From Flavobacteriaceae bacterium (GTDB lineage Bacteria > Bacteroidota > Bacteroidia > Flavobacteriales > Flavobacteriaceae), in contig JABSPN010000002.1 of the NCBI GenBank assembly GCA_013214425.1, positions 1 through 31,093 on the forward strand: a stretch of 31,093 bases of DNA. Direction: 5' to 3'. Made by a program: the position numbers and the translations under genes. Shown one piece after another: positions 14,902 through 31,093 of the stretch; position 1 is the stretch's first letter; each line of letters opens with the position of its first letter. The notes beneath the pieces were generated by a model. It saw only the letters and a program-made list of their open reading frames with translations. It did not search any database and was not told where the DNA came from.

Positions 14902-15702
14902 ATGAGCACACAAGCCATTGGCATATTTGACTCGGGTGTTGGAGGCACTTCAATTTGGAAAGAAATTCACGAATTACTTCCCAACGAATCGACTATTTAT
15001 CTCGCCGATAGTTTACATGCACCTTATGGACAAAAAAAAAAAGAACGTATTCTAGAGCTCAGTATTAAAAACACCGAGTTACTCATCAAGAAAGACTGCA
15101 AGCTCATTGTAGTGGCTTGTAATACAGCTACAACAAATGCTATTTCGTATCTAAGACATAACTATAACGTTCCTTTTATCGGAATTGAACCTGCCATTAA
15201 GCCTGCTGCATTAAAAACCAAAACAAAGGCCATTGGAATTCTTGCAACTAAAGGCACATTAAGCAGTGAATTATTTCATAATACTTCGGAACTATTTGCT
15301 GAAAATATCGAAATTCACGAGCAAGTAGGCAAAGGTTTGGTAGAATTGATCGAATCTGGCAAAAAGGACAGCTCTGAAATGACGGATTTATTGAAAACGT
15401 ACTGTTTACCCATACTAGAAAAGAACATCGATTATTTGGTATTGGGCTGTACGCATTATCCGTATTTGATTCCACAGTTAAAAAAGATCTTACCCAAAAC
15501 GGTTACCATCATCGACTCGGGAGAAGCGGTTGCCAGACAAACAAAAGCGGTTTTAGAACGACATGATTTATTGAATTTATTAGCAAGAAGCAAGAAAAAA
15601 GAAGTAAGAAACATTTCTCATCTTTTTTATAGTAATAAGGAAGTAAATATCCTACAGGACATAATCGGGAAGCAATTTAAGGCTGAGTTTTTGAAGTTTT
15701 AA
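14902..15702 (+). CDS. murI: Glutamate racemase
   Basis: IGIFDSGVGG, catalytic VVACNTAT and LVLGCTHYP. Confidence 0.97.
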   Translation: MSTQAIGIFDSGVGGTSIWKEIHELLPNESTIYLADSLHAPYGQKKKERILELSIKNTELLIKKDCKLIVVACNTATTNAISYLRHNYNVPFIGIEPAIKPAALKTKTKAIGILATKGTLSSELFHNTSELFAENIEIHEQVGKGLVELIESGKKDSSEMTDLLKTYCLPILEKNIDYLVLGCTHYPYLIPQLKKILPKTVTIIDSGEAVARQTKAVLERHDLLNLLARSKKKEVRNISHLFYSNKEVNILQDIIGKQFKAEFLKF

Positions 15703-15860
15703 TTTGTATTGTTTCTCATGAAGCTTATTACTAATGTTACCAAAAGTATTATTAATAAAACTAACTTGTAATACTTTTGCTTTATTGTGTAAGCATAACC
15801 GAACACTATAAAACCAACTAAAATTAATATTCTAATCGCTAATAAAGTAGAACAAAGCAC
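15699..15860 (-). CDS. Putative 53-aa two-helix membrane protein, or 3' remnant of a decayed gene (not in ORF track)
   Basis: GTG at 15860 gives MLCSTLLAIRILILVGFIVFGYAYTIKQKYYKLVLLIILLVTLVISFMRNNTN; its TAA overlaps the murI TAA in a shared TTAA. Confidence 0.35.
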   Translation of the reverse strand: MLCSTLLAIRILILVGFIVFGYAYTIKQKYYKLVLLIILLVTLVISFMRNNTN

Positions 15861-16033
15861 TCTTTAAGCCAACTTGATCTGAATGATAGGGATAATCCAT
15901 ATCAACAATAAAACTATAATATCACGCAACCATTAACAATAGTATTGTATAAACATGAGCTAAAACGATTACTATTTTCCTTAGAACTCTCAATACTTCT
16001 GTTCACTCTCGATTAATTACTAAAGACCAGTGA

Positions 16034-16546
16034 CTATCTCTTAAACCAACTCGAATATTCAATATAATTATTGGCAATGCGATTAATTTCTCCTGAAATC
16101 AATTCCGGAGACACATCTTTTACTTTTTTAGCGGGAATACCAGCGTAAATACTACCAGCCTCTACTCTAGTATTTTTTGTTACTACAGCTCCAGCTGCGA
16201 TTATAGAATTGCTTTCTATCACACAATCGTCCATCACTATACTTCCCATTCCAATGAGTACATTATCGTGAATGGTGCATCCGTGGACAATAGCATTATG
16301 ACCAATAGATACATTGTTCCCTATGGTTGTCGGACTTTTCTCAAAAGTAGCGTGAATTACGGCTCCATCCTGTATGTTGACCTTATCTCCTATTCTAATA
16401 AAATGGACATCACCGCGTATTACAGCATTAAACCATACACTACATTGATTTCCAATCGTTACTTCTCCAACTATAGTTGCATTTTCAGCAATAAAACAAT
16501 CGTCTCCAATTTCAGGATATTTATCACGTACAGGTTGTATAATCAT
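16034..16546 (-). CDS. Gamma carbonic anhydrase-family protein (YrdA/CaiE-like)
   Basis: Hexapeptide beta-helix repeats, VWFNAVIRGD, three metal-ligand His (VIHA, IGHNAIVHGC); start overlaps the LytTR gene stop. Confidence 0.93.
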   Translation of the reverse strand: MIIQPVRDKYPEIGDDCFIAENATIVGEVTIGNQCSVWFNAVIRGDVHFIRIGDKVNIQDGAVIHATFEKSPTTIGNNVSIGHNAIVHGCTIHDNVLIGMGSIVMDDCVIESNSIIAAGAVVTKNTRVEAGSIYAGIPAKKVKDVSPELISGEINRIANNYIEYSSWFKR

Positions 16547-17277
16547 TATTTAAAATAGCTTAATAATTCGGCCTTCTTACTTGGTGCTACTTGAATTTCT
16601 TTGTTAGTTTGCAGTACCACACTTCCTCCTTTTCCTTTTCGGTATTTGACAACCGCATTGACATTCACCAGGAAAGATTTGTGTACACGCACAAAATTAG
16701 ACGCCTTGAGCGCTTCTTCAAAATACTTTAATGTTTTGCTCACTAATATTTTTCTGTTCTCCAGATAGATCTCTGTATAATTATCGTCAGCCTTACAATA
16801 CACAATATCCTGAATGTTCAGTACTTCAAATCCATCTTGTTGCGGAATGGTAATCTTACCTTCAACGATTTTACTAGATGGCTGTATCACATTATTCTCT
16901 AAGGCATTTTCTTTTTGCTTAATGACAAAAACATAATCAACTGCCTTAATCAATTCATCAATAGAAATAGGTTTCAGAAGATAATAAGACGCATGATTGT
17001 TTAGGGCATCTAAAGCGTAGTGATCGTAGGCGGTAACAAATACGGTTTCAAAGGTTCTGTCTCCTACTCGCTCCAGTAAATCGAAAGCATTTCCGAAGGG
17101 CATTTCCACATCAAGAAAAACCAGGTCTAACTCATTATTCCTAATCAGGATCAGAGCATCTTCAATATTAGAAGCCTCTCCCAGTAGATTTACTTTAGGG
17201 CAATACTTGGTAATATAATTGGTCAATATTTCACGGCTTTTGGCCTCATCTTCTACAATTATCGCTTTTAGTTCCAT
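16546..17277 (-). CDS. LytTR-family response regulator
   Basis: Receiver IVEDE / LVFLDVEMP / FVTAYD / YLLKP; LytTR domain KADDNYT, FVRVHKSFLVN. Confidence 0.96.
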   Translation of the reverse strand: MELKAIIVEDEAKSREILTNYITKYCPKVNLLGEASNIEDALILIRNNELDLVFLDVEMPFGNAFDLLERVGDRTFETVFVTAYDHYALDALNNHASYYLLKPISIDELIKAVDYVFVIKQKENALENNVIQPSSKIVEGKITIPQQDGFEVLNIQDIVYCKADDNYTEIYLENRKILVSKTLKYFEEALKASNFVRVHKSFLVNVNAVVKYRKGKGGSVVLQTNKEIQVAPSKKAELLSYFK

Positions 17278-17282
17278 TCTAG

Positions 17283-19571
17283 TTAGTCTTTTTTCAGTGT
17301 TAGTATTACTTTAGTTCCGGTGTGGTTGGGTTTATCTACGATCGCTACATCCACCTTGTCGTCATACATTTCATTCAAAATAGCGACTCTCTTTTTGATA
17401 TTTCCCATTCCTTTTGATTGTTGTTTCTTCTGATGCTGTGTTTTTAACTCTTTAGATTTCTCTCTTCCTATTCCGTTATCTTCAATACTGATTTGTATTA
17501 CTGAAGAAGTGACTTGTTTTACATGAATCATAAGAGATCCTTTTTCTTCTTTATAACGCAATCCGTGCCACACGGCATTTTCCACATAGGGCTGAAGCAA
17601 CATGGGTGGGATTTGAAAATCTGCTACCTCTATATCTTCATCAACATGTATTTCATAATCAAACTTATCCTGAAACCTGAAATGTTCCAGTTTGGTATAA
17701 ATCTCCAATAATTCAATCTCTTTTGATAACGGGATAAAATCCTGTTCAGAGTTCTCTAAAACACTTCGCATCAATTGAGAGAATTCACTTAAATAACGAT
17801 TTGCTGTACGCTCATCATTGGTAGCGATAAAACTATTCACCGAGTTTAACGCATTAAAAATAAAATGCGGATTCATCTGACTTCTCAACTGTTTTAAAGC
17901 CAATAAATTATTATTCAGCTTTTGTTGCTTCACGTTCCTGTACATATAGTAAGCCAACAGCGAGATTAAGAACAATCCGAACAATAATGAATAAATGATT
18001 GTCTTTTGGGTTTTATTGCTTTCTAAAGCCAGCTGAGAATCTTTCATCGCCAGGTTCAGTTTTCCTTCAGACAGCTCTCTATCTTTTTCTAAGCTTGTAA
18101 TCCTATTCTGACTCTTGGTTATTCTCTGATTAAATCTTGAGGCCTGAACAATCTCTTGCTCTTTCTTGATATATAGTTTCTCAACCAATGCAACATAATT
18201 CTTATAGATTTCATAAGCTGTTACAAAATCTAATTGCTCATCGTAGGCTTTGGAAAGTTTTTTAGTGGCATCTTTTTCAACTATCAAGTCCTCCCGTTTA
18301 TTCGCTTCTTTAATACTCTTTTCTAGATACGGAATCGCTTCTTTAAACTTCGATTGCTTGAAATAAGCATCACCAATTTTATAGTTTAACTTTTGAGGTG
18401 AAATTGTATTGCTTACACTGTTATCATTTATAAGAAAACCGCTATTCCCAAGGCCTGATATAGTGAAAACAGAATCAGGTTTCGGTAATTCTTTTACTTG
18501 CTCTAGATTTCTTTTCCTCAATTCTATCTCTTCATCAAAACGATTGTTTTGGCTTAAGAAGTCGGCTACTTTATCACTTTCCTGAATAGATCGTTGTATA
18601 TTTTCACTTTCAGCGAGCTGAAGTGAATTATTATAATAATCATCAGCTTCTGCATATTTTCCTTCCTGAGCAAAAACATCACCTATTTTAGAGTTTAAGT
18701 CGGTAATCTTAGGTGTAATCAAATGTTTTTCAGCAATAGTCAATCCTTTTCTATAATTATTTTCTGCTGAAGGCTCTTGTTTCAAGGCTATATAAGCATC
18801 TCCTAAAGCTTCATAATACTGAACCTTTTGGTAATTAGACAATTTACTTTTCTTGATATTTTTTAAGGTTTGAATGCTTAAATTATACTCTCCATTTAAG
18901 TAATACGCTTTCGCTAACTGTAACTGATTAGTAGGAGTTGAAAATAAGTTTTTACTCAGCCTAAAATTACTAATCGCCAAGTCATACTGGTTCCAATACA
19001 AATAAATCTCACCTAATTTCTCATAAGCTCTGGACACATTAGATTTACTTAACTCATTCTCCAGAGAAATCTCCAAGGCTTTTGATACATAATCAATACT
19101 AGTTGCAGCGTCTTTTTTAAGTGAAGAATTAGCTTTATAGAGATTACTATTAAACTCATCCATAACCTCGCCCGTGACAGCTTGCTTATACTTTTTATCT
19201 TCTTTGACTACTGCAACGCCTTTCTCTATATATATCGTAAGTTTTTCTTCAGACGTGACTTTATATACCACCTTTTCAAAACTTGGATGTGTGATTTCTA
19301 CTTCATCACCCAAAGCTGCTTGAATTTTAAACTCCCCTAATGAATTGGTTTTGGTAAACTCTGTATTAGCTATAGAAAGATCGGCGTCTTTAACACCTTC
19401 CCAGGAGTCTTTCATCTTAACCACTCCTCTTAGTGTAAACATGTTTTCTCTTTCGAATGGCTTGTTCTTCTTATTAGTATTACCGGCATCATTAAACTGA
19501 CCATAGGCTAGTCCGAAAAGCATCAGAAAGACAACTGTTATCTTATATGTAAAAGTGGTATTCTTATTCAT
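17283..19571 (-). CDS. LytS-type sensor histidine kinase with periplasmic carboxypeptidase-regulatory-like and TPR domains
   Basis: Signal peptide from ATG 19571 (ORF-track start 19622 is probably too long), TPR-like helices, TM segment TIIYSLLFGLFLISLLAYYMY, LRSQMNPHFIFNALN H-box, ENAVWHG and IEDNGIG boxes. Confidence 0.93.
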   Translation of the reverse strand: MNKNTTFTYKITVVFLMLFGLAYGQFNDAGNTNKKNKPFERENMFTLRGVVKMKDSWEGVKDADLSIANTEFTKTNSLGEFKIQAALGDEVEITHPSFEKVVYKVTSEEKLTIYIEKGVAVVKEDKKYKQAVTGEVMDEFNSNLYKANSSLKKDAATSIDYVSKALEISLENELSKSNVSRAYEKLGEIYLYWNQYDLAISNFRLSKNLFSTPTNQLQLAKAYYLNGEYNLSIQTLKNIKKSKLSNYQKVQYYEALGDAYIALKQEPSAENNYRKGLTIAEKHLITPKITDLNSKIGDVFAQEGKYAEADDYYNNSLQLAESENIQRSIQESDKVADFLSQNNRFDEEIELRKRNLEQVKELPKPDSVFTISGLGNSGFLINDNSVSNTISPQKLNYKIGDAYFKQSKFKEAIPYLEKSIKEANKREDLIVEKDATKKLSKAYDEQLDFVTAYEIYKNYVALVEKLYIKKEQEIVQASRFNQRITKSQNRITSLEKDRELSEGKLNLAMKDSQLALESNKTQKTIIYSLLFGLFLISLLAYYMYRNVKQQKLNNNLLALKQLRSQMNPHFIFNALNSVNSFIATNDERTANRYLSEFSQLMRSVLENSEQDFIPLSKEIELLEIYTKLEHFRFQDKFDYEIHVDEDIEVADFQIPPMLLQPYVENAVWHGLRYKEEKGSLMIHVKQVTSSVIQISIEDNGIGREKSKELKTQHQKKQQSKGMGNIKKRVAILNEMYDDKVDVAIVDKPNHTGTKVILTLKKD

Positions 19572-19667
19572 ATCATCGATTGTAAACTTACACACTTTAT
19601 ACCAAAGAATAAAATAGCCCACTCGTAAAAAAGCCTTAAATCGACTAATTTTCCATTCAAAATAACC

Positions 19668-19721
19668 TGTTCACTCATTAAAATGGATTGTTTACTCATT
19701 CAGAGTCCCTACAACCTCATT
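19668..19721 (+). promoter_or_regulatory. Three direct repeats at 21-bp period, probable LytTR binding site
   Basis: CTCATT at 19674, 19695 and 19716; the first two extend to TGTT(C/T)ACTCATT. Confidence 0.75.
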
Positions 19722-19771
19722 TTTGGTTTTTCTTAGCATAACCTGACGCTACATTTACAAAAAAAACAATT

Positions 19772-20941
19772 ATGAAGAAATTAAATAGAATTCTCGCATT
19801 AATCCTTATAATTAGCTTCTTTTCTTGCCAGGCAACTACAAAAGAAGAAAAAGCAATCGCAAAAAATACAACATATTCAGCTATTGAAGTGATTGAAGAC
19901 AATACAATTCAAGTTGCCCTATTATTGGACACAAGTAATAGTATGGATGGCTTAATCGATCAAGCCAAAGCGCAACTATGGCAAATTGTTAACGAACTTT
20001 CTTATGCAAAATGTGAAGGAGAAAGACCTAACTTAGAAATTGCTCTATACGAATACGGTAACGACAACTTATTAAAAAAAGATGGGTACATAAGACAAGT
20101 ATTAGCTTTTACAAAAGATTTAGATGATATCTCTGAGAGACTTTTCTCACTAACTACTAATGGAGGAAGTGAGTATTGCGGCCAAGTAATACAAACTTCT
20201 TTAGATAAGTTGCCATGGAGAAAAGGTAAGAACGATCTAAAATTAATTTTTATTGCCGGTAATGAGCCTTTTACTCAGGGACCAGTGAACTATAAAGACG
20301 CTTCTTTAAATGCTAAAGAAAAAGATGTGACGATTAATACGATTTTTTGCGGTGAATACAACCATGGGATTTCTGGAATGTGGCAAGATGGAGCTTTACA
20401 AACTAGTGGAGATTATATGTCGATAGACCATAATGTAAAAACTGTTCATATTCCGTCTCCTTATGATGATCAAATATTACAGTTAAATATTCAATTAAAT
20501 GGAACGTATATTTACTACGGAAGACATGGGAAGAAAAAAGCAACGGCTCAGGCGGTTCAAGATTCTAATGCGCAAGGATATAGTGAAGCCAACGCGGTAA
20601 GCAGAACAGTAACAAAGAGTTCTGGGTTTTACCAAAACTCATCTTGGGATTTAGTTGATGCAGAAGAAGAGGAAGATTTCGATTTAAAAGATGTTGACAA
20701 GAAATCATTACCTGAAGATTTACAAGGTAAAAGCTTAAAAGAAATAGAAAAAATCATCGAAGAAAAAAGGGCTGAAAGAAAGAACATTCAAAATCAAATT
20801 CAGGAGTTAAACCAAAAAAGATTGGAGTTTATTGCAGAAAAAAAGAAAGACAATGCTTCTGATCAAAACCTGGAGAATGCATTAATCAATACGATTAAAA
20901 AACAGGCCTCTCGTAAAAACTATACTTGGAAAAAGAACTAA
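19772..20941 (+). CDS. von Willebrand factor A-domain lipoprotein with C-terminal coiled coil
   Basis: Lipobox FFSC; MIDAS DTSNS in VALLLDTSNSMDGLI; IALYEYGN, TNGGSEYCG, IFIAGNE; charged helical C-terminus. Confidence 0.88.
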   Translation: MKKLNRILALILIISFFSCQATTKEEKAIAKNTTYSAIEVIEDNTIQVALLLDTSNSMDGLIDQAKAQLWQIVNELSYAKCEGERPNLEIALYEYGNDNLLKKDGYIRQVLAFTKDLDDISERLFSLTTNGGSEYCGQVIQTSLDKLPWRKGKNDLKLIFIAGNEPFTQGPVNYKDASLNAKEKDVTINTIFCGEYNHGISGMWQDGALQTSGDYMSIDHNVKTVHIPSPYDDQILQLNIQLNGTYIYYGRHGKKKATAQAVQDSNAQGYSEANAVSRTVTKSSGFYQNSSWDLVDAEEEEDFDLKDVDKKSLPEDLQGKSLKEIEKIIEEKRAERKNIQNQIQELNQKRLEFIAEKKKDNASDQNLENALINTIKKQASRKNYTWKKN

Positions 20942-21008: not shown

Positions 21009-22010
21009 TTAATTTACATAAGGACACTTACAATCATAAGCTTCGTCTCTACAGAATAGGTTCAATCCAAGAGTTAACTGGTGAAAGCCTCCATTCTCAA
21101 AAACAATGGCTCCAGATTGTTTCGTATATTGATAAGCAAACATGAAGTTATTATAGTTAATTCCGATAAAAGGACTAATATATGTTAGCTTTTGATTATC
21201 TACAGAAGTACCATCTAAAAACTCAGCTCCATCTAAACTTCTTCTGTATGATAAACCTCCCCATACTTTACCCCAATCAGTTTCTTTATATACTTTAGCA
21301 TTAAAATCAAAAGAAGCCTCTTCTGTTTGCTCTACTAACTGGAACATTACAGAAGGCTCGATAGTCCACTCACTATATCCAGGATTAAAAGTATATCCTC
21401 CAGTAAATAAATACCTTCTCAAGTTTGTACTTTCAACAGCTGTATAGATGTCTCTACCACTTCCTAATAAGTTTTTAATTGTAAAGTGGGCGAATAATTC
21501 ATCTAACTGATAAGACATCCCAAAATCAACGTTAAAATATGTTGCACTTTGCTCAACTCCTGAAATAATTGGATCAAAATCTGTTAATGAAAATTCTGAT
21601 TCGTCTAATCTACTTTGAACAACACCCACACTTAATCCAAATGACACCATACTTAAGTCAATCGTGTTTCTAGATAAAAGTAAGTGATGCGCATACGTTA
21701 CATATCCACCAGTTTGTGAGTGGTAACCATTTTGATCATTAAAAAATATGGCTCCGAACCCTGAAGGCCCATCATCTGAAACCTTTGAGTTATAAGATAA
21801 CGTCTGTAAATTTGGAGCTTCATCCTGGTCAAACCATTGTAAACGCGCTGTAGCTCTAAGCTTGGCACAATTTGATGCACCAGCCATAGATGGGTGAATC
21901 AAATAATAGTTGTCAGTTAGATAATCAGTATAAATAGGCAATCCCTCTTGTGCACTCATCATTCCGGTAATTATAAATACCAAAACAACCCAATATTTCT
22001 TAATGCTCAT
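21009..22010 (-). CDS. T9SS PorP/SprF-family outer-membrane beta-barrel
   Basis: Signal peptide; NYYLIHPSMAG, RLQWF...APNLQTLS, DQNGYHSQTGGYVTYAHHL, WGGLSYR, FAYQY, GFHQLTLG; begins 3 nt after a type-B substrate gene. Confidence 0.9.
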   Translation of the reverse strand: MSIKKYWVVLVFIITGMMSAQEGLPIYTDYLTDNYYLIHPSMAGASNCAKLRATARLQWFDQDEAPNLQTLSYNSKVSDDGPSGFGAIFFNDQNGYHSQTGGYVTYAHHLLLSRNTIDLSMVSFGLSVGVVQSRLDESEFSLTDFDPIISGVEQSATYFNVDFGMSYQLDELFAHFTIKNLLGSGRDIYTAVESTNLRRYLFTGGYTFNPGYSEWTIEPSVMFQLVEQTEEASFDFNAKVYKETDWGKVWGGLSYRRSLDGAEFLDGTSVDNQKLTYISPFIGINYNNFMFAYQYTKQSGAIVFENGGFHQLTLGLNLFCRDEAYDCKCPYVN

Positions 22011-22013
22011 TAT

Positions 22014-25000
22014 TTATCGTTTAAGTGTAAAATGCTTATTAAATTCTTTCTCTATGTTATCTTCTATGTAAACCACTCTAAACCAGTAATCTGAAGCAGG
22101 TAACAAACTCCCGTTGTACGTTCCATCCCATCCTGCTCCATTAGGGTCTAATTGTTTTAACAATTTCCCATAACGGTCAAATATAAAAATTTTTGCGATA
22201 CTTCCGCAATGTCCGCCTATGATATTCCATGTATCGTGGTAATTATCTGCATTTGGAGTGAAATATTTAGGATAATCGATCACACAAACCTCTAATACAA
22301 TATCATCACACCCATTTACATCTCGTATCGTAACATAATGTAATCCCGGTTCTACATCTGTGAATATTCCACTATCCTGAAAAGGACCGCCATCCAAACT
22401 AAATTGATACACTCCTAAACCACTTGCCGTTGCCTCTATCGTATGATTATCCGAAAATGCTAAACTCGTAACATCTGCACTATATGTAAGCGCTGGGGAA
22501 GACGAATCTATTGTGATACTCGCCTCATTAAAACAACCATCTCCATTGGCATTCGATACGATAACTGTATACACTCCCGGTGCATTAGCAAAAATTCCTG
22601 ATGTGGTATCTGGTAATAAATCTGCTCCTAAATACCATTCAAAATTATATAGCGCCGCATCCAATCCTGTGTCTATAAATGGAACATCTGGTATCGGATT
22701 ACCAGCCTCATCTAAACAAACTACTGTCTTATCGGCTGTAAGAGTTACCTGTGGTATTGGGTTATAGATATCAAAACTCACCAGCTCAAAACACATCGTG
22801 TTTGGATTCTCTATCCTCACCCAAATTGTCTGTGGATTCGTCGTATTTGCAAACATCGTTGGATCTCCTGTATCATTAATATCATTTTGGTCATTTACTG
22901 CATCATCATAACTAGTAAAATAACCTGTTATAGCCGATAAATTATCTGTAGATAAAATCAGCGTATCATAAGTCTGTAAATTAAATACTGCTGAACCATC
23001 TGAATCCGTATCACACGCTGTTAATGGATCCAATCCAAATGAATAGGGTGTCGGGTTAGGTTTTACCTCTAAAGTCAATATCGTGAATGATTGACAGCCG
23101 GTATCATTATCAGTAACCACTACTCCTAAAGTCTGTGGATTTGTAATATTGGTATAATTTGTAGGGTCTGTAATCACATTGATATCTGCCGCTGCATCTG
23201 CTGGGCTTGGGTAATACGTAATCGTTACATTAGTGTTCCCTTGTGCAATCTCATCATTCTTTAACGTTAGATCAAATACCGTAAAGCCATCATTATTCTG
23301 TCCTAAATCATCACAAACACTAAATGGGTCTGGCGGTGTTCCGATATCGATTGGCGCATTGTTCACCACTAAGTTGAACATACGAATTGCCGGACAACCT
23401 GTATTCACACTCTCTACTCTTAACCAGATAGGTTCTGGATTGGTAGTATTAGGATATAAAGCCGGTAATGGGTTCACATCATTGATCGCATCTGCTTCAC
23501 TAATGTGGAACGTTAAAATATAATCTGATGGCAATCCAACTAAAGCTGGATCGCTATAAATCTCTGCTAAACGATCGGCTCTGTATAAGTCAAAGGTCAC
23601 TGTAGCATCTTGATCTACATCACATACTACATAATCACTAATCTCCTCTGGAAGCTCTGGACCATCTATAACATTCAAACATAACTGCAAAGACGTATTA
23701 GCACAAGTCGTTACTGTATCATAAACTCTAATAAATACACATTGTGGGTTCTGATCACTTGAATTGTTAAATGGACTTACTATTGGGTTACTACCTAAAT
23801 CGGCCTCATCTTGAGTTAAGTGGAAGGTCACTAAAGCGTTTGGATCGGTAGTAATCTGTGGAATCACTGAATCTAAATCAAATGATCCTACATTATCATT
23901 ATCATCATCACAAAAATCTAAAGCCAATGGCTGATTCGCTGCCGGCAATGGCGTTACAATTAAATTCATCTCACCGATAGTGAAACATCCAGTAGTTAAG
24001 TTATCAACTCTTGGGTAGACCACCTGTAAATTAGGTACTATATTCGTATATAAATCTGGTAATGGGTTTACCGCTGCAGTAGCGTCAGCTAAACTGAAAT
24101 AATACATCACCTGTAAAGTCGTATCACCAATCGTTACCGTATTATTCATACTCACTAAATCAAATTCCTCAAACCCATCACCAGCATTATTTACATCACA
24201 TAACGTGAAATCAACAGGCGTCGCAATTGTAGGGTTTCCATGTATAATAACTTCAAAACTAGATTCATCAAAACACAGCCCTAATGGATCTCCAGCGTAG
24301 ATAAAAATCGTTTGAGTAGTTGCAATAGCATCACCAGGATTTAACATCGTTCCTGTACCTCCAGGACCTGTATAATAATCACCAACTGTTAAAACAGGTA
24401 ATATATAGGCAGTATCACATAGTTCTACATCAGGTAAAACATCTACGGTAGGTGTAATGTGGATTGTAATAGTAAAACTGTGTTCACTAGTACAATTCGG
24501 AGTTGTAGCTGTTTCAGAATAAATAAATAATGTTGTAGTAATATTAATAACATCTCCTGGGTTTAACATCGTTCCAGTAGCACCAGTTCCAGTATAATAA
24601 ACTCCGTCAGTTAAATCAGGCAATGTATAAGTGTCACATGCCTCTACATCTGCTGGTGTATCAACTGCAGGAAAAGCAATTATAGTTAACACAACAGGTA
24701 TTCTATCACTTGCACATCCAGAAACAGCTTGTTCTGCCTCAGCAAAATACGTGTAAACTCCAGGCGTAGATGGTATAGCAGGTGTATAGGTTAAACTATT
24801 GGCTGCTAATAAAGTTCCACCAACAGCAGCATCATACCAATTTACTTCATCTCCCAAAGCTGGTGCGCCTGGAAGAGCTACTGATAAGATTGGAATAGCG
24901 CTTCCTTCACAAATACTTGGATCGTTAGGACTTATAGGCGTGTCAATAAATGGACATGGGCAAAGTGGCGAAGTAATATCCAAAGTTCCTAAACAAGCAG

Positions 25001-26714
25001 GATTTGTTGGATGAGTAGCAGTTATCGTAATATCAGTTCCAGTTGGAATATTAATCACTGTATTACCTACCACAGTTCCTGCTGTAGCAACAATTATTGC
25101 TCCAACCGGAGTTACTGTAAAGGTAACATCATAAGTAAGTAAACTTGCCGCACAAACATCAGATACAAATGTAATAATTGGTGTTTGATCTATATTTACA
25201 GTAGCAGTAGATGTATCATCCGCACAAGGAGGAATCCCAGTTACTGTATAATCAAATGTAGATGTCGTAGCACCAACTGCTGGAGTAAATGTTCCAGCTA
25301 CGGCATCAAATGTACCTCCTGTCCCTGAAGTTCTTACCCAAGTTCCTCCTGGATCTTCACCAGTTATTAACGCAAATAAATCAATTGTTGTGGCATCACC
25401 ATCACAAACAGTTGTATTTCCATCTGTACCGGCTGTAAGCGAATCGATTATTAAATCAAAGTTAACAACATCATAGCATCCAATATTTACAGGGTCTTCA
25501 ACTCTTACATAAACTGTAAATGGACTCATTGCATTTGTAATAACAAATGCATTAGCTGGTACTATTGGATTAATATCAGCATCGGCATCAGCCATTGAAG
25601 TGTGATAGGTTATAATACTTCCTGCTGGTTGAAGGGGATCATTTAAAGATAAATCGAATGATTCATCACCAGATAAATCAGCATCACAGCGAAGCATATC
25701 TGGTACAGGGTTAGCAGGTGTTCCTGCTTGTTGAAGCGTTACTGTTGTTTCATTTGTCTCAGTAATCACTGACCCATCACATAAGGTATAGGTTACTTCA
25801 GCAGTATAAGTCGTTGTCGCTACTGGACAAACATTAATAATATCTGTATTCCCCACTACAGGACCTCCAGTACCAGAACCTTCATACCAAGTAATCGAAG
25901 TAATTGCAGGCCCCCTAGGAGTAAATCTCCAAGCTTCGTTAGTAACAGTCCAATCAGGATCTAAACTATTTCTCCCTGGCGGCACATGAGCTATAGTAGC
26001 TGTATCATTTTGAATTCCTACAACTGCATTTCCTCCATTCCAAGTTCCGTCTACATTTTTCTCTTCTATATATACGTCTATTACATTGGTATCTTCATAT
26101 AATACCATCATACCTGTGTAAAGAATCGAATTATTTTGAAACATTGGCACATCATGATATCCAACTATCAAGGCTCTACAACCAGTACTTAAGGTAACCA
26201 ATTCCCATCCTATTTCACCACCTTGAGCTGGGTCAATATCATGATAAACTCCATAAATTGAATTCGGAAATAATGCTCCTAATGTACTCGGTAAGTTATT
26301 CGAAAAAGCATATCCTGAAGGTCCACCAGCATCAGCGGTATTAAAATTAATAACACCATTCGATCCCGCTATACACTGAGTAAATGAATTACCATAAAAA
26401 CAAAACTCAAAAGGTAAATTAATAATTGGAGACCAAACATCATCCTGTCCAACACTAATTGGGTTTGCTAGTCCAGTAAATGCACTAGGTGGTGCATAAG
26501 CTATACTAGAAACCGTATAATCTGTCGTATCTCCTAAGCTTAAATATGTTGCTTCCAAGTCAACACAATTTGTTCCCGAAGTACAATCAATTGGTGGTGG
26601 GTCGACATCTCCTAAACCTATCCCCCCAGCAATTACGTCAGGACATCCAGCTGTTTGAGCCAAACTTATTGACACAAACATGAATGTTATGTAAAAAAAT
26701 ATTTTTCTCTTCAT
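22014..26714 (-). CDS. Large T9SS type-B-sorted surface protein (putative adhesin, 1566 aa)
   Basis: Signal peptide; NIDO-like N-domain; Cys-bracketed repeat modules; C-terminal PKYFTPNAD..HDTW...IFDRYGK...WDG.YNG..LP..DYW..HFTLKR gliding-motility/type-B CTD. Confidence 0.93.
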   Translation of the reverse strand: MKRKIFFYITFMFVSISLAQTAGCPDVIAGGIGLGDVDPPPIDCTSGTNCVDLEATYLSLGDTTDYTVSSIAYAPPSAFTGLANPISVGQDDVWSPIINLPFEFCFYGNSFTQCIAGSNGVINFNTADAGGPSGYAFSNNLPSTLGALFPNSIYGVYHDIDPAQGGEIGWELVTLSTGCRALIVGYHDVPMFQNNSILYTGMMVLYEDTNVIDVYIEEKNVDGTWNGGNAVVGIQNDTATIAHVPPGRNSLDPDWTVTNEAWRFTPRGPAITSITWYEGSGTGGPVVGNTDIINVCPVATTTYTAEVTYTLCDGSVITETNETTVTLQQAGTPANPVPDMLRCDADLSGDESFDLSLNDPLQPAGSIITYHTSMADADADINPIVPANAFVITNAMSPFTVYVRVEDPVNIGCYDVVNFDLIIDSLTAGTDGNTTVCDGDATTIDLFALITGEDPGGTWVRTSGTGGTFDAVAGTFTPAVGATTSTFDYTVTGIPPCADDTSTATVNIDQTPIITFVSDVCAASLLTYDVTFTVTPVGAIIVATAGTVVGNTVINIPTGTDITITATHPTNPACLGTLDITSPLCPCPFIDTPISPNDPSICEGSAIPILSVALPGAPALGDEVNWYDAAVGGTLLAANSLTYTPAIPSTPGVYTYFAEAEQAVSGCASDRIPVVLTIIAFPAVDTPADVEACDTYTLPDLTDGVYYTGTGATGTMLNPGDVINITTTLFIYSETATTPNCTSEHSFTITIHITPTVDVLPDVELCDTAYILPVLTVGDYYTGPGGTGTMLNPGDAIATTQTIFIYAGDPLGLCFDESSFEVIIHGNPTIATPVDFTLCDVNNAGDGFEEFDLVSMNNTVTIGDTTLQVMYYFSLADATAAVNPLPDLYTNIVPNLQVVYPRVDNLTTGCFTIGEMNLIVTPLPAANQPLALDFCDDDNDNVGSFDLDSVIPQITTDPNALVTFHLTQDEADLGSNPIVSPFNNSSDQNPQCVFIRVYDTVTTCANTSLQLCLNVIDGPELPEEISDYVVCDVDQDATVTFDLYRADRLAEIYSDPALVGLPSDYILTFHISEADAINDVNPLPALYPNTTNPEPIWLRVESVNTGCPAIRMFNLVVNNAPIDIGTPPDPFSVCDDLGQNNDGFTVFDLTLKNDEIAQGNTNVTITYYPSPADAAADINVITDPTNYTNITNPQTLGVVVTDNDTGCQSFTILTLEVKPNPTPYSFGLDPLTACDTDSDGSAVFNLQTYDTLILSTDNLSAITGYFTSYDDAVNDQNDINDTGDPTMFANTTNPQTIWVRIENPNTMCFELVSFDIYNPIPQVTLTADKTVVCLDEAGNPIPDVPFIDTGLDAALYNFEWYLGADLLPDTTSGIFANAPGVYTVIVSNANGDGCFNEASITIDSSSPALTYSADVTSLAFSDNHTIEATASGLGVYQFSLDGGPFQDSGIFTDVEPGLHYVTIRDVNGCDDIVLEVCVIDYPKYFTPNADNYHDTWNIIGGHCGSIAKIFIFDRYGKLLKQLDPNGAGWDGTYNGSLLPASDYWFRVVYIEDNIEKEFNKHFTLKR

Positions 26715-27020: not shown

Positions 27021-30000
27021 TTATCGTTTCATGGCAAAATGCCCACTAAATTCCTTTTCCACTTCATCTTCGATATAGGTCAACTTAAACCAGTAATCTG
27101 TTGCCGGCATTGCATTCCCATTATAGATACCATCCCAACCAATTCCATTTGGATCTACTTGTTTTAATAGTTTACCATATCTGTCAAAGATGTATAGTTT
27201 GGTAATGTTTCCACAATGTCCACCAATGATGTTCCAGGTATCATGATACCCATCAGCATTTGGAGTGAAGTACTTTGGATAATCTATCACACATACCTCA
27301 ATGATCACCTCGTCACACCATCCATCAATATCTCTAATGGTTACATAGTGTACTCCAGGTTCCACACCTGTAAAGATACCACTATCCTGAAATGGTCCTC
27401 CATCTAAACTAAATACATACGTACCCAGTCCAGTAGCATAGGCCTCAATAGTATGGTTTTCTGCAAACGCTACTGTTGTCACATCCGCACCAAAGGTAAG
27501 CGGTGGTGAAGAAGATCCAATAGTAATGGTAGCGGTGTTGAAACATCCATCTCCATTAGCATTGTATACGTTGACCGTATAATCTCCAGGTAGTTCAGCA
27601 AAGATACCCGGTGTAGTATCTGGTAATAAGTCAGTACCTAATAACCACTCAAAGGTATATAAAGTAGGATCTAATCCTGTGTCTAAGAATGGGAAGTCTG
27701 GTATTCCAACTCCATTAACATCTAAACACACCACAGGTCTGTCTGCCGTTAGCTCAAAGTTTGGTATTGGATTGTAGAGATCAAAACTTACCAGTTCAAA
27801 ACATCCTGTACCTGGACTCTCTACTCTTACCCAAATAGTTTGTGGGTTAGAAGTATTGGCATAGTTCATTGGATCTCCTGTATCGTTAATATCATTTTGA
27901 TCATTCACTGCATCATCATAAGAAGTAAAGTATCCTGTGATTACTGATAAGGCATCAGTAGATAAAATTAGACTATCATAAGTGGTTAAATTAAAGACAG
28001 CCGAACCATCTGCATCTGCATCACACTCCGTTAGCGGATCAATACCATATGGATATGGTGTTGGGTTTGGTTTTACCTCAATAGTGAGTATAGTAATTGT
28101 AGCACATCCTGTTGTATTATCAGTTACCACTACTCCAAGAGTTTGTGGGTTTAAGATATTCTGATATGCTGTAGGATCAGCAATAGCACCAACACCTGCT
28201 TGTGCATCTGCAAGAGACGGATAGTAAGTAATGGTCACATTGGTATTTCCTTGAGCAATCTCACCGTTTTTCACCGTTAGATCAAATATCGAGAACCCGT
28301 CATTGTTTTGTCCCAGATCATCACAGATAATCAGTGGAGTGGCTACCTGCGTAGGATCAATCGGTGCATCCTGTACCACTAGATTTAGTGGACGAATGGC
28401 AGGACATCCAGAAGTTTGAGTATCACTCCATACTCGTACCCATACTGTTTGATTGTATGCAATGATATTGGTATAAGCAGTAGGCGTAGCAATGATTGGT
28501 GTTCCTGCAATAGCATCGGCTTCTGATTCGTGATAAGTCACTGAATAATCAGCTGGTACACCGACAAGATCAGGATCAGAGAAGATGTTCGCCTCAGAAG
28601 AGGTTAAATCAAAAATGGCAAATCCATCTTGATCATCATCACAGATCACCAGATCATCTAACTCTTCAGGAATAGCAGGTCCATCGATTACATGTAAAGT
28701 AATAGTTAATTGTGTATTGATACATCCCGTTAAGTTATCTAATAAACGAATATAGATTGTCTGTGGATTAGTCTGACTCGAGTTGTTAAACGGACTGACA
28801 ATTGGAGAACCACCAGCATTGGCTTCATCTTGTGTTAAGTGGAAGGTTACCGTTACATTCGGATCAGTTGTAATGTTCGGGATTTGAGCATCCAGATCAA
28901 ATTCTCCTACATCATCATTGTCATCATCACAAAAGAATAAATCAGGAGGTGTAGTTCCTAGTACTGTATTGACAATTAAATCAAAACTATTGATGTCGAA
29001 ACATCCCGAAGTTGTATTTTCAATTCTCACCCAGATTGTTTCAGGCGATGGAGGCGTGTTAGCATAAGTTGTAGGATTGGAAATAGCAGCCGTTCCTGCA
29101 GTCGCATCCGCTATCGAGTTATGATAAGTTACCACAACTCCTGCTTGTCCACCTATGATAGTATTCTCATGAGTAGTCAGATCGAAGATCATGATATTAT
29201 CCATATCATCATCACAAACTTCTAAATCAGGAGAAGCATTGGCAACAGGTGATATATTAACTGTAATAACAAAAGTATTTTCCGCCCAACAGTTGTTCGG
29301 AGTCGTTCCCGTATCGGCATAGACATACATTGTGGTAGTAGAGGTAATGACATCACCAGCAAAATATGCTGTTCCGCTTCCGTTAGGTCCGTCAAAATAA
29401 TTACCTACAGCCAGAGCTGGTAAGGTATAACTATCACAAACAGTCACATCATTAGGTGCATCAGGAACAGGTGTATTATCTATAGTAATAATAAAAGTGT
29501 TTTCTGCCCAACAGTTGTTCGGAGTCGTTCCCGTTTCTGCATAGACATACATAGTTGTAGTTGCTGTGATGTTATCTCCAGGGTTAAAAGCCGTTCCACT
29601 TCCGTTAGGTCCATCAAAATAGTTACCTACTGCTAGAGCTGGTAAAGTATAACTATCACAGGCTTGCACATCTACAGGCGCATCAGGAGTAGGAGTGATG
29701 TCAATGGTCACAGTAAAGCTTGATTGATCACTACACATATCTCCAGTACCGGTAGCCGCATAAATATAAATAGTTTGAGTAGTGGTGATGACATCTCCGG
29801 CATTCATAATGGTTCCAGTACCTCCAACTCCAGAGTAGTAGTTCCCTGAAACAAGAGCTGGTAAGACATAACTATCACAAGCTTGTACATCAGTGAGTAC
29901 ATCCACCGTTGGGGTGAAATTCATAGTAATATCAAAACTAGATTCATCCCAACATATATTTCCTGGTCCATTAGCCGCGTAGATATAGACAGTCATGGTT

Positions 30001-31093
30001 GTGACTATAGTATCCCCGGCATTCATCATAGTTCCCGTAGCATTCGGTCCAGTCCAGTAATTATTTCCAGCCGAAATAGCTGGTAATACATAAGAATCAC
30101 AAACCTCTAGATCTGGTAAAGTGTCAGCAGTAGGCATTCCTACAATAGTTAAGTTTACGGGGATTCTAGTACTGACACATCCAGAGACATTTTGCTCAGC
30201 TTCCGCATAATAAGTATACGTACCAGGAGTTAATGGTCCAGGAGGTGTATAGGTCCAGCTATTGGCTAATAATAAGGTGCCTCCAACAGGAGCATCATAC
30301 CAGTTTACCTGATCTCCTAAAGCAGGTGCACCTGGTAAGGTAACACTTAGAGCTGGTATAGGGGTTCCATCATCACATATGGTTTGATCGATAGGGTTGA
30401 TAGGTGGATCAATAAATGGACAGGCACAATTAGGTGCTGTTACATCTAAAGTATCCACACAAGTAGCATTGACAGCACTAGTTGCTGTAATGGTTATATT
30501 AGTTCCCGCTGGTACACCAATAATAGTGTTTCCTACTACAGTACCTGCAGTCGACGTTACAATTGCCCCAGCTGGTGTTACGGTAAAGGTTACATCATAA
30601 GTTAGTAAATCGGCAGCACAAGTAGAAGAAACAAACGTTAAGACTGGTGTTTCATCAATGTTTACTGTAGCTCTTGATGTATCATCAGGACATGGTGCAA
30701 TACCTGTCACAGTATAATCAAAAGTAGAAGTTGTGGCTCCAACAGCGGGTAAGAAAGTACCTGCAGCAGCATTAAATGTACCGCCAGTACCTGAAGTTCT
30801 AGTCCAAATACCTCCTGCATCTTCTCCAGTAATTAAGGCAAATAAATCTATAAGAGCTGTACTATCATCACAAATGGTTGTTGCTCCATCTGTACCTGCT
30901 GTTACTGCAGGGTTAATAGTTACAGTTGCAGTAGAGGTATCATCAGCACAAGGTGCTACACCAGTTAAGGTATAATCAAAAGTAGAAGTTGTAGCTCCTG
31001 CAGCTGGTAAGAAGGTTCCAGCCGCCGCATTGAATGTACCACCAGTGCCCGAGGTTCTTACCCAAGTTCCACCAACATCTTCCCCAGTGATTA
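27021..31093 (-). CDS. Second large T9SS type-B-sorted surface protein, 5' part outside the window
   Basis: Frame is open from 31091 (ITGEDVGGTWVRTSG...) to the stop at 27021; the ORF-track start at 30710 is an internal GTG. Same module order and type-B CTD as the downstream paralog. Confidence 0.93.
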   Translation of the reverse strand, partial: ITGEDVGGTWVRTSGTGGTFNAAAGTFLPAAGATTSTFDYTLTGVAPCADDTSTATVTINPAVTAGTDGATTICDDSTALIDLFALITGEDAGGIWTRTSGTGGTFNAAAGTFLPAVGATTSTFDYTVTGIAPCPDDTSRATVNIDETPVLTFVSSTCAADLLTYDVTFTVTPAGAIVTSTAGTVVGNTIIGVPAGTNITITATSAVNATCVDTLDVTAPNCACPFIDPPINPIDQTICDDGTPIPALSVTLPGAPALGDQVNWYDAPVGGTLLLANSWTYTPPGPLTPGTYTYYAEAEQNVSGCVSTRIPVNLTIVGMPTADTLPDLEVCDSYVLPAISAGNNYWTGPNATGTMMNAGDTIVTTMTVYIYAANGPGNICWDESSFDITMNFTPTVDVLTDVQACDSYVLPALVSGNYYSGVGGTGTIMNAGDVITTTQTIYIYAATGTGDMCSDQSSFTVTIDITPTPDAPVDVQACDSYTLPALAVGNYFDGPNGSGTAFNPGDNITATTTMYVYAETGTTPNNCWAENTFIITIDNTPVPDAPNDVTVCDSYTLPALAVGNYFDGPNGSGTAYFAGDVITSTTTMYVYADTGTTPNNCWAENTFVITVNISPVANASPDLEVCDDDMDNIMIFDLTTHENTIIGGQAGVVVTYHNSIADATAGTAAISNPTTYANTPPSPETIWVRIENTTSGCFDINSFDLIVNTVLGTTPPDLFFCDDDNDDVGEFDLDAQIPNITTDPNVTVTFHLTQDEANAGGSPIVSPFNNSSQTNPQTIYIRLLDNLTGCINTQLTITLHVIDGPAIPEELDDLVICDDDQDGFAIFDLTSSEANIFSDPDLVGVPADYSVTYHESEADAIAGTPIIATPTAYTNIIAYNQTVWVRVWSDTQTSGCPAIRPLNLVVQDAPIDPTQVATPLIICDDLGQNNDGFSIFDLTVKNGEIAQGNTNVTITYYPSLADAQAGVGAIADPTAYQNILNPQTLGVVVTDNTTGCATITILTIEVKPNPTPYPYGIDPLTECDADADGSAVFNLTTYDSLILSTDALSVITGYFTSYDDAVNDQNDINDTGDPMNYANTSNPQTIWVRVESPGTGCFELVSFDLYNPIPNFELTADRPVVCLDVNGVGIPDFPFLDTGLDPTLYTFEWLLGTDLLPDTTPGIFAELPGDYTVNVYNANGDGCFNTATITIGSSSPPLTFGADVTTVAFAENHTIEAYATGLGTYVFSLDGGPFQDSGIFTGVEPGVHYVTIRDIDGWCDEVIIEVCVIDYPKYFTPNADGYHDTWNIIGGHCGNITKLYIFDRYGKLLKQVDPNGIGWDGIYNGNAMPATDYWFKLTYIEDEVEKEFSGHFAMKR
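29247..30130 (-). repeat. Four tandem coding repeats of about 73-74 aa (CDSYxLPAL...C...F.IT)
   Basis: Units 3 and 4 are offset by exactly 222 bp and share an identical 29-bp stretch GCCCAACAGTTGTTCGGAGTCGTTCCCGT (29284 and 29506). Confidence 0.9.
30650..31093 (-). repeat. Tandem 258-bp (86-aa) Thr/Gly-rich coding repeats
   Basis: ITGED.GG.W.RTSGTGGTF.A.AGTF.PA.GATTSTFDYT recurs at 31091 and 30833; a single copy sits in the downstream paralog at about 25179-25436. Confidence 0.88.

Follow-up and report, generated by a model that had tools for sequence, protein, structure and literature searches.

We consider it likely that this Flavobacteriaceae window, a stretch of 31,093 nucleotides, carries a conserved Bacteroidia signaling module in which a sensor kinase acts through a LytTR regulator and a set of 21-bp repeats to activate a divergent operon of envelope proteins. 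As proposed, the kinase, which joins a periplasmic TPR domain to a LytS-type core, would sense a periplasmic protein or peptide cue through its TPR domain and phosphorylate the LytTR response regulator. The regulator would bind two or three 10-bp direct repeats, exactly 21 bp apart, that lie right against the weak -33 region on the divergent side, and once bound would activate, rather than repress, an operon for envelope proteins that are exported. The divergent operon of this genome consists of a vWA lipoprotein gene alone. That the lipoprotein would be the output of the system, an idea raised in an earlier sequence-only reading of this DNA, is well supported by linkage, by joint gain and loss, and by a conserved LytTR-type putative operator at the vWA-side promoter.

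Gene organization of the window

Features are listed in Table 1. The earlier description of a vWA gene divergent from a tightly coupled kinase-regulator-gamma-CA operon is reproduced by the ORF coordinates, with 5 nt between the kinase stop and the regulator start and a 1-nt overlap (TAATG) between the regulator stop and the start of the gamma-CA-like gene. Because of this overlap, the gamma-CA-like gene is probably cotranscribed with the kinase-regulator pair in this window. The two T9SS adhesins reported near the vWA gene were also found as described; both carry type-B C-terminal sorting domains (CTDs), and a PorP/SprF gene lies between them and the vWA gene. A GTG kinase start at 19622 was dropped in favor of the ATG at 19571, given homologue starts with a signal peptide and a -7-like box within the extension. 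The spacer shared by the divergent genes measures 200 bp because the ATG, and not the GTG, is most likely the kinase start. A 53-aa ORF at 15699-15860, at the start of the range originally marked, is conserved in no related locus and is probably not a gene.

Table 1. Features of the window, with coordinates, strand, and the analyses on which each assignment is based
Feature	Coordinates	Strand	Basis
gamma-CA-like hexapeptide protein	16034-16546	-	ORF coordinates, Pfam/NCBIfam scans
REC+LytTR response regulator	16546-17277	-	ORF coordinates, Pfam PF00072 and PF04397
TPR + His_kinase (PF06580) + HATPase_c kinase, 762 aa	17283-19571	-	Pfam, orthologue alignment, AF2
Conserved 16-mer with kinase-side -7-like box (putative promoter)	19583-19598	-	k-mer count
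Three direct repeats of 21-bp period, putative LytTR operator	19670-19721	+	Sequence comparison
vWA-side -7 box	19750-19758	+	Anchored comparison of 35 loci
VWA (PF00092) lipoprotein, 389 aa	19772-20941	+	Pfam, alignment, AF2, Foldseek
PorP/SprF gene	21009-22010	-	Pfam/NCBIfam
First T9SS type-B CTD adhesin	22014-26714	-	Pfam/NCBIfam
Second T9SS type-B CTD adhesin	27021-30710+	-	Pfam/NCBIfam

The sensor kinase and its regulator

The kinase begins with a signal peptide/TM1 and continues through a beta-sandwich (residues ~45-115), a periplasmic TPR array (~134-445), a stalk helix, a TM segment, PF06580, and HATPase_c. In its AF2 model (pLDDT 80), the long stalk helix runs through the TM segment at residues ~523-546, and the array, predicted by Pfam and AF2 to be periplasmic, comprises about eight or nine TPR pairs. 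The PF06580 match is strong (E = 3e-23), HATPase_c scores 22.6 bits, slightly short of its 26.4 cut-off, and H569 of the H-box NPHF is invariant in 31 aligned orthologues, as are the N and G box residues. The regulator matches PF00072 (E = 2e-16) and PF04397 (E = 1e-21), and its orthologues share 70-75% identity with it in close loci and 41-51% in other families and orders. With the H-box His, the N and G boxes, and REC and LytTR domains all present, the two proteins appear to retain signaling-competent parts.

A PF06580 histidine kinase, a REC-LytTR regulator, and ~21-bp repeats at the promoter place the pair among LytTR-type two-component systems. Assignment as a LytS/BtsS orthologue is not supported: a Pfam scan of the kinase found no PF07694 (5TM-LytS) domain, the TPR array being there instead, and the best NCBIfam matches of the regulator, BtsR (111 bits versus a cut-off of 246) and LytR (82 versus 375), fall under their cut-offs. 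This assembly contains at least 11 kinase cores of the TPR-sensor/LytS-type kind and 13 further LytTR regulators.

The vWA lipoprotein

The vWA gene, found in one copy in a search of its own genome, encodes a lipobox (ending in FFSC), a disordered linker to residue ~41, a vWA fold (~45-220), and a conserved helical tail (~230-389). It matches PF00092 at 27.8 bits (cut-off, 23.8), and its AF2 model (pLDDT 83, pTM 0.80) resembles Rpn10, integrin beta-I, and BatB (Foldseek E ~1e-8). Solved structures searched with a profile of the vWA family gave no match, and Foldseek matched nothing to the helical tail and only generic vWA folds to the rest of the protein. According to an atlas search, the tail travels together with vWA domains in several phyla, always unannotated. 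The MIDAS claimed for this protein held up in part: D53-x-S55-x-S57 and T129 are invariant across 42 homologues, but where a fifth Asp would be expected the protein has G163-N164-E165, which is likewise invariant, and the aligned motif appears largely intact. Surface lipoproteins carry an acidic export signal after the lipobox Cys, and the residues at this position in the vWA protein show no clear match to it.

Repeats and promoters in the shared spacer

Direct repeats with the consensus TTYACTCATT occupy the ~200-bp kinase/vWA spacer. The three copies in this window, R1 (TTCACTCATT, 19670-19679), R2 (TTTACTCATT, 19691-19700), and R3 (CAACCTCATT, 19712-19721), follow an exact 21-bp period, with the proximal copy, R3, degenerate. 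Among 92 kinase-to-divergent-gene spacers, an exact 21-bp direct repeat (≥9/11) was present in 63, compared with 1-10 loci for other spacings and an average of 4.5 for shuffles. A third upstream copy, unselected in the search, yields the same consensus, and a variant, TTCACYAAGT, recurs with the same period in other families and orders. No other dimer in the 3.4-Mb assembly scores as high as the repeat site in the window (33.7 bits).

On the vWA side, a -7 box (TACATTTAC; family consensus, TAGnTTTAC) is separated from the proximal repeat core by exactly 28 nt and from the ATG by 13 nt. In an anchored comparison of 35 loci, the 28-nt distance is constant whether the first divergent gene encodes a vWA, SIMPL, or rhodanese-like protein. 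To judge by sequence, this spacing matches the layout classically seen at LytTR activator sites. Since the -33 region is a weak-looking T-run, the vWA-side promoter is probably activator dependent. On the kinase side, the conserved 16-mer reads TAAACTTACRCACTTT on the plus strand, and on its minus strand TAAGTTTA forms a -7-like box of the Bacteroidota TAnnTTTG type, ~10 nt ahead of the kinase start codon. A k-mer from this region recurs in 39-60 of the 92 spacers, whereas shuffles reach 6-15 at most, and the box is a putative promoter of the kinase operon. The repeats also lie ~80-140 nt upstream of the kinase-side box, and the regulator therefore may autoregulate the kinase operon or may repress rather than activate.

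Linkage of kinase, regulator, and vWA gene

A gene-neighborhood survey, set beforehand as a test of the circuit, found the vWA gene and the TPR-kinase/LytTR pair linked across Bacteroidia and gained or lost together. The arrangement is kept in all 78 close Flavobacteriaceae loci with enough flank, although related genomes are non-independent samples, and this count and those that follow overstate statistical weight. Kinase and regulator are divergent from the vWA gene in 76 of 80 close loci; contig ends truncate the remaining ones, of which two still include the kinase and two lack any upstream flank. Outside the close loci, a kinase-regulator pair lies near 30 of 31 orthologous vWA loci in the order sample and accompanies 18 of 23 in other Bacteroidia orders. 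A sample of 301 genomes had a regulator orthologue (E ≤ 1e-57) in 37 of the 37 genomes with a vWA orthologue and no vWA gene in genomes without that regulator, and within one genus both genes occur in the identical 8 of 24 genomes.

Five orthologous vWA loci of other orders are without a two-component pair. Three of these pairless loci were examined, and in two the vWA gene pairs with a gene for a protein of ~735-745 aa, confirmed as VIT-vWA in one. In one Flavobacteriales genome, the vWA gene and the pair are unlinked, and transposase-like ORFs adjoin the kinase. As gene order, the kinase-regulator/vWA arrangement is far beyond chance, and by the same comparison the kinase, the regulator, and the vWA gene are the core of the module.

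Alternative explanations

The lipoprotein could be more than an output. In the loop suggested by the sequence-only reading, it would double as a ligand or co-sensor for the TPR domain in the periplasm, and kinase activity would respond to the amount or occupancy of the lipoprotein, making an envelope or contact sensor that monitors itself. We regard this reading as unlikely. Consistent with it are the very tight linkage and class-wide co-occurrence of the vWA gene and the pair, the predicted extracytoplasmic location of both the lipoprotein and the sensor part of the kinase (from signal peptides and model topology), and the established role of vWA and TPR folds as protein-binding modules. There is also a precedent in Porphyromonas gingivalis, where the sensor PorY is bound and activated in the periplasm by PorA, an exported protein (PMC12152298). 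However, four sampled genomes have an orthologous kinase-regulator pair and no vWA gene that we could find. Three of these loci keep a matching kinase (L116 and L117 over nearly its entire length), the same three have SIMPL-like genes on the divergent side (L119 adds a DUF4139-like gene), and the 21-bp repeats recur at L117 and L119. Genes for SIMPL/DUF541, rhodanese-like, and DUF4139/DUF4140 proteins join the vWA gene in relatives and occasionally take its place. Because pairs persist without vWA and the content of the divergent operon varies, the vWA protein cannot be the sole or obligate input. Since a search of this 81%-complete assembly turned up neither SIMPL nor DUF4139 families, no wider SIMPL/DUF4139 regulon is demonstrable in this genome. 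To judge by the residues behind the lipobox, the lipoprotein may face either the periplasm or the surface. A complex prediction with kinase residues 26-520 and vWA residues 42-389, each with its own alignment, scored 0.00, which argues neither for nor against binding. It is doubtful that the MIDAS face or helical tail docks on the TPR array such that the system would measure its own output.

Considerably less probable is the idea that the module belongs to a surface-sensing or adhesion circuit together with the adjoining PorP/SprF and type-B adhesin genes. Nothing in the analysis points directly to surface or contact sensing. Adhesins often contain vWA domains, PorP synteny extends to 73 of 80 close loci (<400 bp from the vWA stop in 69 of 80) and to four Flavobacteriaceae loci of the order sample (L082, L084-L086), and adhesin-like genes follow it in several close loci. 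This synteny is limited to marine Flavobacteriaceae: no PorP or adhesin gene was found at Flavobacterium-like, other-family, or other-order vWA loci, which keep the kinase-regulator link. PorP and the vWA gene point toward each other and are therefore not cotranscribed, and this contig has no operator-like site elsewhere, including before PorP or the adhesins. Both adhesins match TIGR04131/PF13585, unlike the vWA protein, which matched no T9SS CTD family in Pfam or NCBIfam.

The gamma-CA gene had been counted as part of the circuit as well, and its distribution speaks against this. Of 76 close loci, 65 have it beside the regulator, whereas it is missing there from all 30 linked Flavobacterium-like or other-family loci and all 18 other-order loci, the pattern of a lineage-restricted passenger on the kinase operon and not of a core gene. 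Its product, which matches Pfam Hexapep, misses the cut-off of the curated gamma-class carbonic anhydrase family NF050158 (165 bits versus 250) and those of PaaY and CaiE; a His...HxxxxH pattern is readable, enzyme activity is putative at most, and we class it as a gamma-CA-like hexapeptide-repeat protein. In the order sample, murI, the gamma-CA-like gene, and PorP are all lost around the vWA gene outside Flavobacteriaceae loci, and on this evidence the gamma-CA-like, murI, and PorP/adhesin neighbors represent synteny confined to this lineage by shared ancestry.

We give very little credence to the adjacency being inherited gene order without a functional link and the repeats being chance or another factor's, for although every locus belongs to a single class and long murI-to-PorP syntenic blocks are common to close relatives, the kinase-regulator/vWA link holds across orders while all other neighbors turn over, its patchy presence is perfectly matched within a genus, and the 21-bp enrichment and fixed -7 box distance beat other spacings and shuffles.

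Comparison with known systems

The proposed activation of a divergent operon by a LytTR regulator has parallels in AgrC/AgrA of Staphylococcus aureus and ComD/ComE of Streptococcus pneumoniae, which also have a REC+LytTR regulator and two or more imperfect direct repeats of 21-bp period directly upstream of an activated promoter. ComE sites combine a 9-bp repeat and a 12-bp linker into this period (PMC4005675), and AgrA binds direct repeats just upstream of its promoters (PMC4227749), inside a spacer between divergent promoters as here. In contrast, AgrC and ComD are polytopic peptide receptors, whereas this kinase couples a PF06580 core to a large TPR sensor in the periplasm; an autoinducer-peptide gene is absent here, the repeat sequence differs (TTYACTCATT), and the promoter follows the Bacteroidota pattern (-7 TAnnTTTG-like). 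LytS/LytR, BtsS/BtsR (YehU/YehT), and YpdA/YpdB share the kinase catalytic family and the regulator architecture. Those kinases sense through a 5TM-LytS membrane domain, and the outputs of the three systems are transporters or holin-like genes, while the present kinase is predicted to have a signal peptide, a beta-sandwich, and TPR pairs facing the periplasm.

The closest functional analogue of the feedback idea is FimS-AlgR/PilY1. To our knowledge, Pseudomonas aeruginosa FimS has no TPR periplasmic domain. AlgR is a LytTR regulator driving an operon with a vWA-containing envelope protein, PilY1, as proposed here, but the context is type IV pili, absent here, and PilY1 is a large pilus-tip protein rather than a 389-aa lipoprotein. 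FimS(AlgZ)-AlgR positively controls fimU-pilVWXY1Y2E, whose products feed back on the kinase (PMC5979040). FimS of P. gingivalis has a periplasmic domain with ~eight TPR motifs and a signal that is not known (PMC11053733). Both FimS-FimR and PorA-PorY involve Bacteroidota sensor kinases, as here, but their outputs are fimbriae or T9SS components, with no known vWA partner. We know of no LytTR-type partner regulator for P. gingivalis FimS or PorY. The BatB vWA structure 3ibs is among the best structural matches to the lipoprotein and has the highest identity of the top ones, at 17-18%. Bat (Bacteroides aerotolerance) operons combine vWA and TPR envelope proteins, but no MoxR ATPase or DUF58 gene is present here, and proteins of this vWA family bear a lipoprotein signal and a distinctive C-terminal tail of helices.

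Implications

Literature searches on LytTR/vWA in Flavobacteriaceae and on DUF4139 returned only genome-comparison papers and none on this module, and we found no described output for any Bacteroidota kinase with a TPR sensor and LytS core. Signal transduction in Bacteroidota is poorly charted, and kinases joining a periplasmic TPR sensor to a LytS-type core are numerous there. The kinase-regulator-vWA group offers a conserved target operon, a defined putative operator, and a predictable promoter, and with these three defined parts it should therefore be among the easiest Bacteroidota TPR-LytS systems to open experimentally.

All of the output proteins, whether vWA with the helical tail, SIMPL/DUF541, DUF4139/4140, or rhodanese-like, are widespread domains without known function, and because they have a regulator in common, the arrangement suggests that they act in one envelope process. 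If the vWA protein does dock on the TPR array, the module would act across Bacteroidia as an envelope sensor that monitors its own output, comparable with PilY1/FimS-AlgR or PorA/PorY though assembled from unrelated components.

Gene layout of the window

Open reading frame (ORF) listing together with Pfam and NCBIfam scans bore out the gene anatomy of the sequence-only reading, with two corrections, one to the kinase start and one to a 53-aa ORF. The kinase, regulator, and gamma-CA-like genes form a tandem run on the minus strand, and the vWA gene lies on the opposite strand, 200 bp from the kinase start. A PorP/SprF gene is convergent with the vWA gene, and beyond it come two large proteins, each carrying a T9SS type-B C-terminal domain. 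A GTG kinase start at 19622 was rejected in favor of ATG 19571 because orthologues begin there with a signal peptide and because a conserved promoter-like box falls within the GTG extension. More than 100 related loci showed no conserved equivalent of the hydrophobic 53-aa ORF between murI and the gamma-CA-like gene (15699-15860, minus strand), and this ORF is probably not a gene.

Features of the kinase-regulator-vWA locus in the window, and two vWA loci from one family of another order
Feature	Location	Strand	Remarks
Gamma-CA-like hexapeptide-repeat gene	16034-16546	-	ORF listing, Pfam/NCBIfam; ATG overlaps regulator TAA
REC+LytTR regulator	16546-17277	-	ORF listing, Pfam/NCBIfam; start 5 nt past kinase stop
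Kinase	17283-19571	-	ORF listing, Pfam/NCBIfam scans; TPR families, His_kinase PF06580 (E = 3e-23), HATPase_c
R1	19670-19679		Spacer repeat
R2	19691-19700		Spacer repeat
R3	19712-19721		Spacer repeat, degenerate
vWA-side -7 box	19750-19758
VWA (PF00092) protein	19772-20941	+	ORF listing, Pfam/NCBIfam; 389 aa, lipoprotein signal
vWA orthologue with ~735-745-aa gene directly after	L127:8993-12349		No two-component pair nearby
vWA orthologue with ~735-745-aa gene directly after	L129:8987-12381		No two-component pair nearby

Conservation of the gene neighborhood

A gene-neighborhood survey had been proposed in the sequence-only reading. When window proteins were mapped onto 80 genome loci encoding close vWA relatives (Algibacter, Winogradskyella, Tenacibaculum, Maribacter, Dokdonia, Leptobacterium, and others), kinase and regulator were divergent from vWA in 76; the other four loci end at contig edges, with the kinase still visible in two and the upstream flank absent in two. 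PorP lies downstream of vWA in 73 of these 80 loci, and the gamma-CA gene downstream of the regulator in 65. Genera with members that have the module include Flavobacterium, Tenacibaculum, Algibacter, and Maribacter.

Across Flavobacteriales, vWA matches were patchy (41 of 301 genomes, 37 at orthologue level). The 34 loci fetched comprise 31 orthologous loci and three paralogues of 24 to 26% identity. A PF06580 kinase and a LytTR regulator stand close by on the opposite strand in 30 of the 31, a link that holds even at 41 to 50% vWA identity, and the three paralogue loci have no such pair nearby. The gamma-CA gene, murI, and PorP are confined to the few Flavobacteriaceae loci of this sample and are absent from its Flavobacterium-like and other-family loci. 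In a sample of 401 Bacteroidia genomes, the divergent pair is kept in 18 of 23 orthologous loci of other orders, and relatives with less than 40% identity have no such pair linked to them. One genome of this sample, the unpublished G475, contributed just a paralogue of 27% identity, which no conclusion here relies on. Among the five exceptions, two loci of the same family that were examined at the ORF level, L127 and L129, have a further gene of about 735-745 aa after vWA; in L127, the only one of the two in which it was confirmed by Pfam, this gene encodes a VIT-vWA protein.

A search for the regulator in the 301 Flavobacteriales genomes, compared with the vWA search of the same genomes, found a regulator orthologue (E <= 1e-57) in all 37 genomes with a vWA orthologue and vWA in none of the genomes lacking that regulator. 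Among 24 genomes of one genus, vWA is present in 8, and these same 8 have the regulator.

The divergent operon itself varies. In about 22 of about 72 close loci, vWA is preceded by one or two further genes of the same orientation. Their products are SIMPL/DUF541 proteins, which Pfam confirmed in a distant locus and, with a weak match, in one close locus; rhodanese-like proteins, identified by their similarity to homologues that Pfam confirmed; and a small membrane protein. Flavobacterium-like, other-family, and other-order loci extend this set with DUF4139/DUF4140 proteins, a second vWA protein, and others. In the genome studied here, vWA is alone in its divergent operon, and SIMPL and DUF4139 were not found in the 81%-complete assembly. 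One locus of another order, L121, carries directly downstream of its vWA/SIMPL operon a cluster (L121:3956-7879) that, read from N-terminal sequences only, resembles MoxR ATPase, DUF58, and BatA.

The vWA lipoprotein and the kinase

The vWA gene is single-copy in its own assembly, and it belongs to a very large family: a homologue search returned more than 8000 matches, the best 120 of them 60 to 73% identical and from several Flavobacteriaceae genera. In an alignment of 42 members, the MIDAS residues D53-x-S55-x-S57 and T129 are invariant, and the fifth MIDAS Asp is replaced by an equally invariant G-N-E. The AlphaFold model (pLDDT 83, pTM 0.80) has a disordered linker past the lipobox Cys, a vWA fold at residues ~45-220, and a helical tail at ~230-389. 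Foldseek returned generic vWA domains only (Rpn10, integrin beta-I, and Bacteroides BatB), and a profile search of PDB sequences with the vWA alignment gave no match. In an Atlas structure search, the tail (taken as residues 215-389, window 20414-20938) was found together with vWA domains in Bacteroidota, Planctomycetota, and Verrucomicrobiota, and it is without annotation; in Elusimicrobiota, it occurs on proteins also bearing CsgG/FlgO domains.

The kinase model (pLDDT 80) runs from an N-terminal signal or transmembrane helix through a beta-sandwich (45-115) and about 8 to 9 TPR helix pairs (134-445) to one long helix, which spans the membrane segment and continues as far as the His_kinase domain. 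This order predicts that the TPR array faces the periplasm. The family is strongly expanded in this organism, with at least 13 further LytTR regulators and at least 11 further PF06580 kinase cores in the 3.4-Mb, 81%-complete assembly.

Putative operator and promoter elements in the divergent spacer

From the kinase start to the first gene on the divergent side, the spacer measures ~130-290 bp, whichever gene comes first. K-mer counting over 92 spacers yielded two conserved elements. One, TAAACTTACGCACTTT, adjoins the kinase start and contains on the kinase strand TAAGTTTA, which resembles the -7 box of the Bacteroidota promoter consensus. The ACTCA core of the other, TTTACTCATT, repeats with an exact 21-bp spacing in 34 loci; four more have it at 42 bp. 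Anchored alignments place three copies in most loci, and the distal copy, which was unused in selection, gives the same consensus. A motif-free test of the 92 spacers, counting direct repeats of at least 9/11 at spacings of 12 to 35 bp, found them at exactly 21 bp in 63, compared with 1 to 10 spacers at each other spacing and a mean of 4.5 in shuffled controls.

In other families and orders, the repeat reads TTCACYAAGT or a close variant of it, with the same 21-bp period. The conserved -7 box TAGnTTTAC starts exactly 28 nt past the end of the proximal repeat core, and comparison of loci showed only a T-run in the -33 region. The 21-bp period matches that of ComE promoters, in which two 9-bp repeats are joined by a 12-bp linker (PMC4005675), and AgrA, too, binds direct repeats that sit in a divergent spacer, immediately upstream of its promoters (PMC4227749).

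Candidate targets elsewhere in the genome

When the source assembly was scanned with a weight matrix of two units 21 bp apart, the window site ranked first (33.7 bits). The next-best matches to the TTYACTCATT dimer (26.8 and 25.5 bits; C441:631-684 and C257:643-696, both minus strand; loci L157 and L158) each precede a gene that is cut off by the contig end and encodes a CarboxypepD_reg-like domain. One of the two products has a Cys-rich N-terminus, the other resembles a TonB-dependent receptor, and both genes may be extra regulon members. The scan found no further operator-like site on the window's contig, and PorP and the adhesins are therefore not preceded by one.

Two sites in the same assembly, C76:1570-1602 (L155) and C361:1724-1756 (L156), hold a repeat of a second type, with two copies of TTCCCTCA at a 21-bp period. 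They precede, by ~65-200 bp, the genes of two large secreted proteins that are paralogues of each other. The one on C361 has a VIT domain; the C76 protein has a similar start, a weak vWA match, and CarboxypepD_reg, Plug, and TPR domains. A LytTR regulator paralogous to the one in the window may act on these genes, a hint that control of vWA-type envelope proteins by LytTR systems could be more general.

A model for control of the vWA operon

We consider it probable that the module works as a single activation pathway. A periplasmic cue would be sensed via the kinase TPR array, and the kinase would phosphorylate the LytTR regulator, which would bind the phased repeats and activate the weak divergent promoter. 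The outcome would be more vWA lipoprotein and, in relatives, also more of its companion envelope proteins. The comparisons show the linkage, the co-occurrence, and the conserved geometry of the repeats, and from these we infer that the regulator binds the repeats, whether it activates or represses, and what kind of cue is sensed.

The sequence-only reading went further, suggesting that the vWA lipoprotein may be a feedback partner or ligand of the kinase as well as its output. Good precedents exist: PilY1 and minor pilins act on FimS-AlgR (PMC5979040), PorA binds PorY (PMC12152298), and Porphyromonas gingivalis FimS has a TPR sensor in the periplasm, for which no signal has yet been identified (PMC11053733). 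In the module described here, however, the kinase and regulator are retained in some genomes that have no vWA, and we regard a ligand role as unlikely. Four genomes of the 301 have the regulator orthologue and no vWA. In three of their loci, a SIMPL-like gene is divergent from the kinase, with a DUF4139-like gene next in L119 (both called by likeness to Pfam-confirmed homologues); neither kind of gene was identified in the fourth, L118. The scan for repeats covered L117 and L119, and both have the same 21-bp repeats; the spacer of L116 is 603 bp long. In another genome of the order, G261, the kinase-regulator pair (L120, contig C19) is on a different contig from an operon of a SIMPL fragment plus vWA (L094, contig C10). 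Transposase-like ORFs are found upstream of the kinase there, and the module looks to have been split by an insertion element.

The proposed activation pathway is built from parts of known kinds, namely a two-component system of the LytTR type and a vWA protein. We did not find their combination described, in which a LytS-type core bears a TPR sensor in the periplasm, the link to an operon for a vWA-plus-tail lipoprotein is conserved across the class, and the operator has this sequence. The main value of the module is as a well-defined entry into an uncharacterized envelope pathway of the Bacteroidota.
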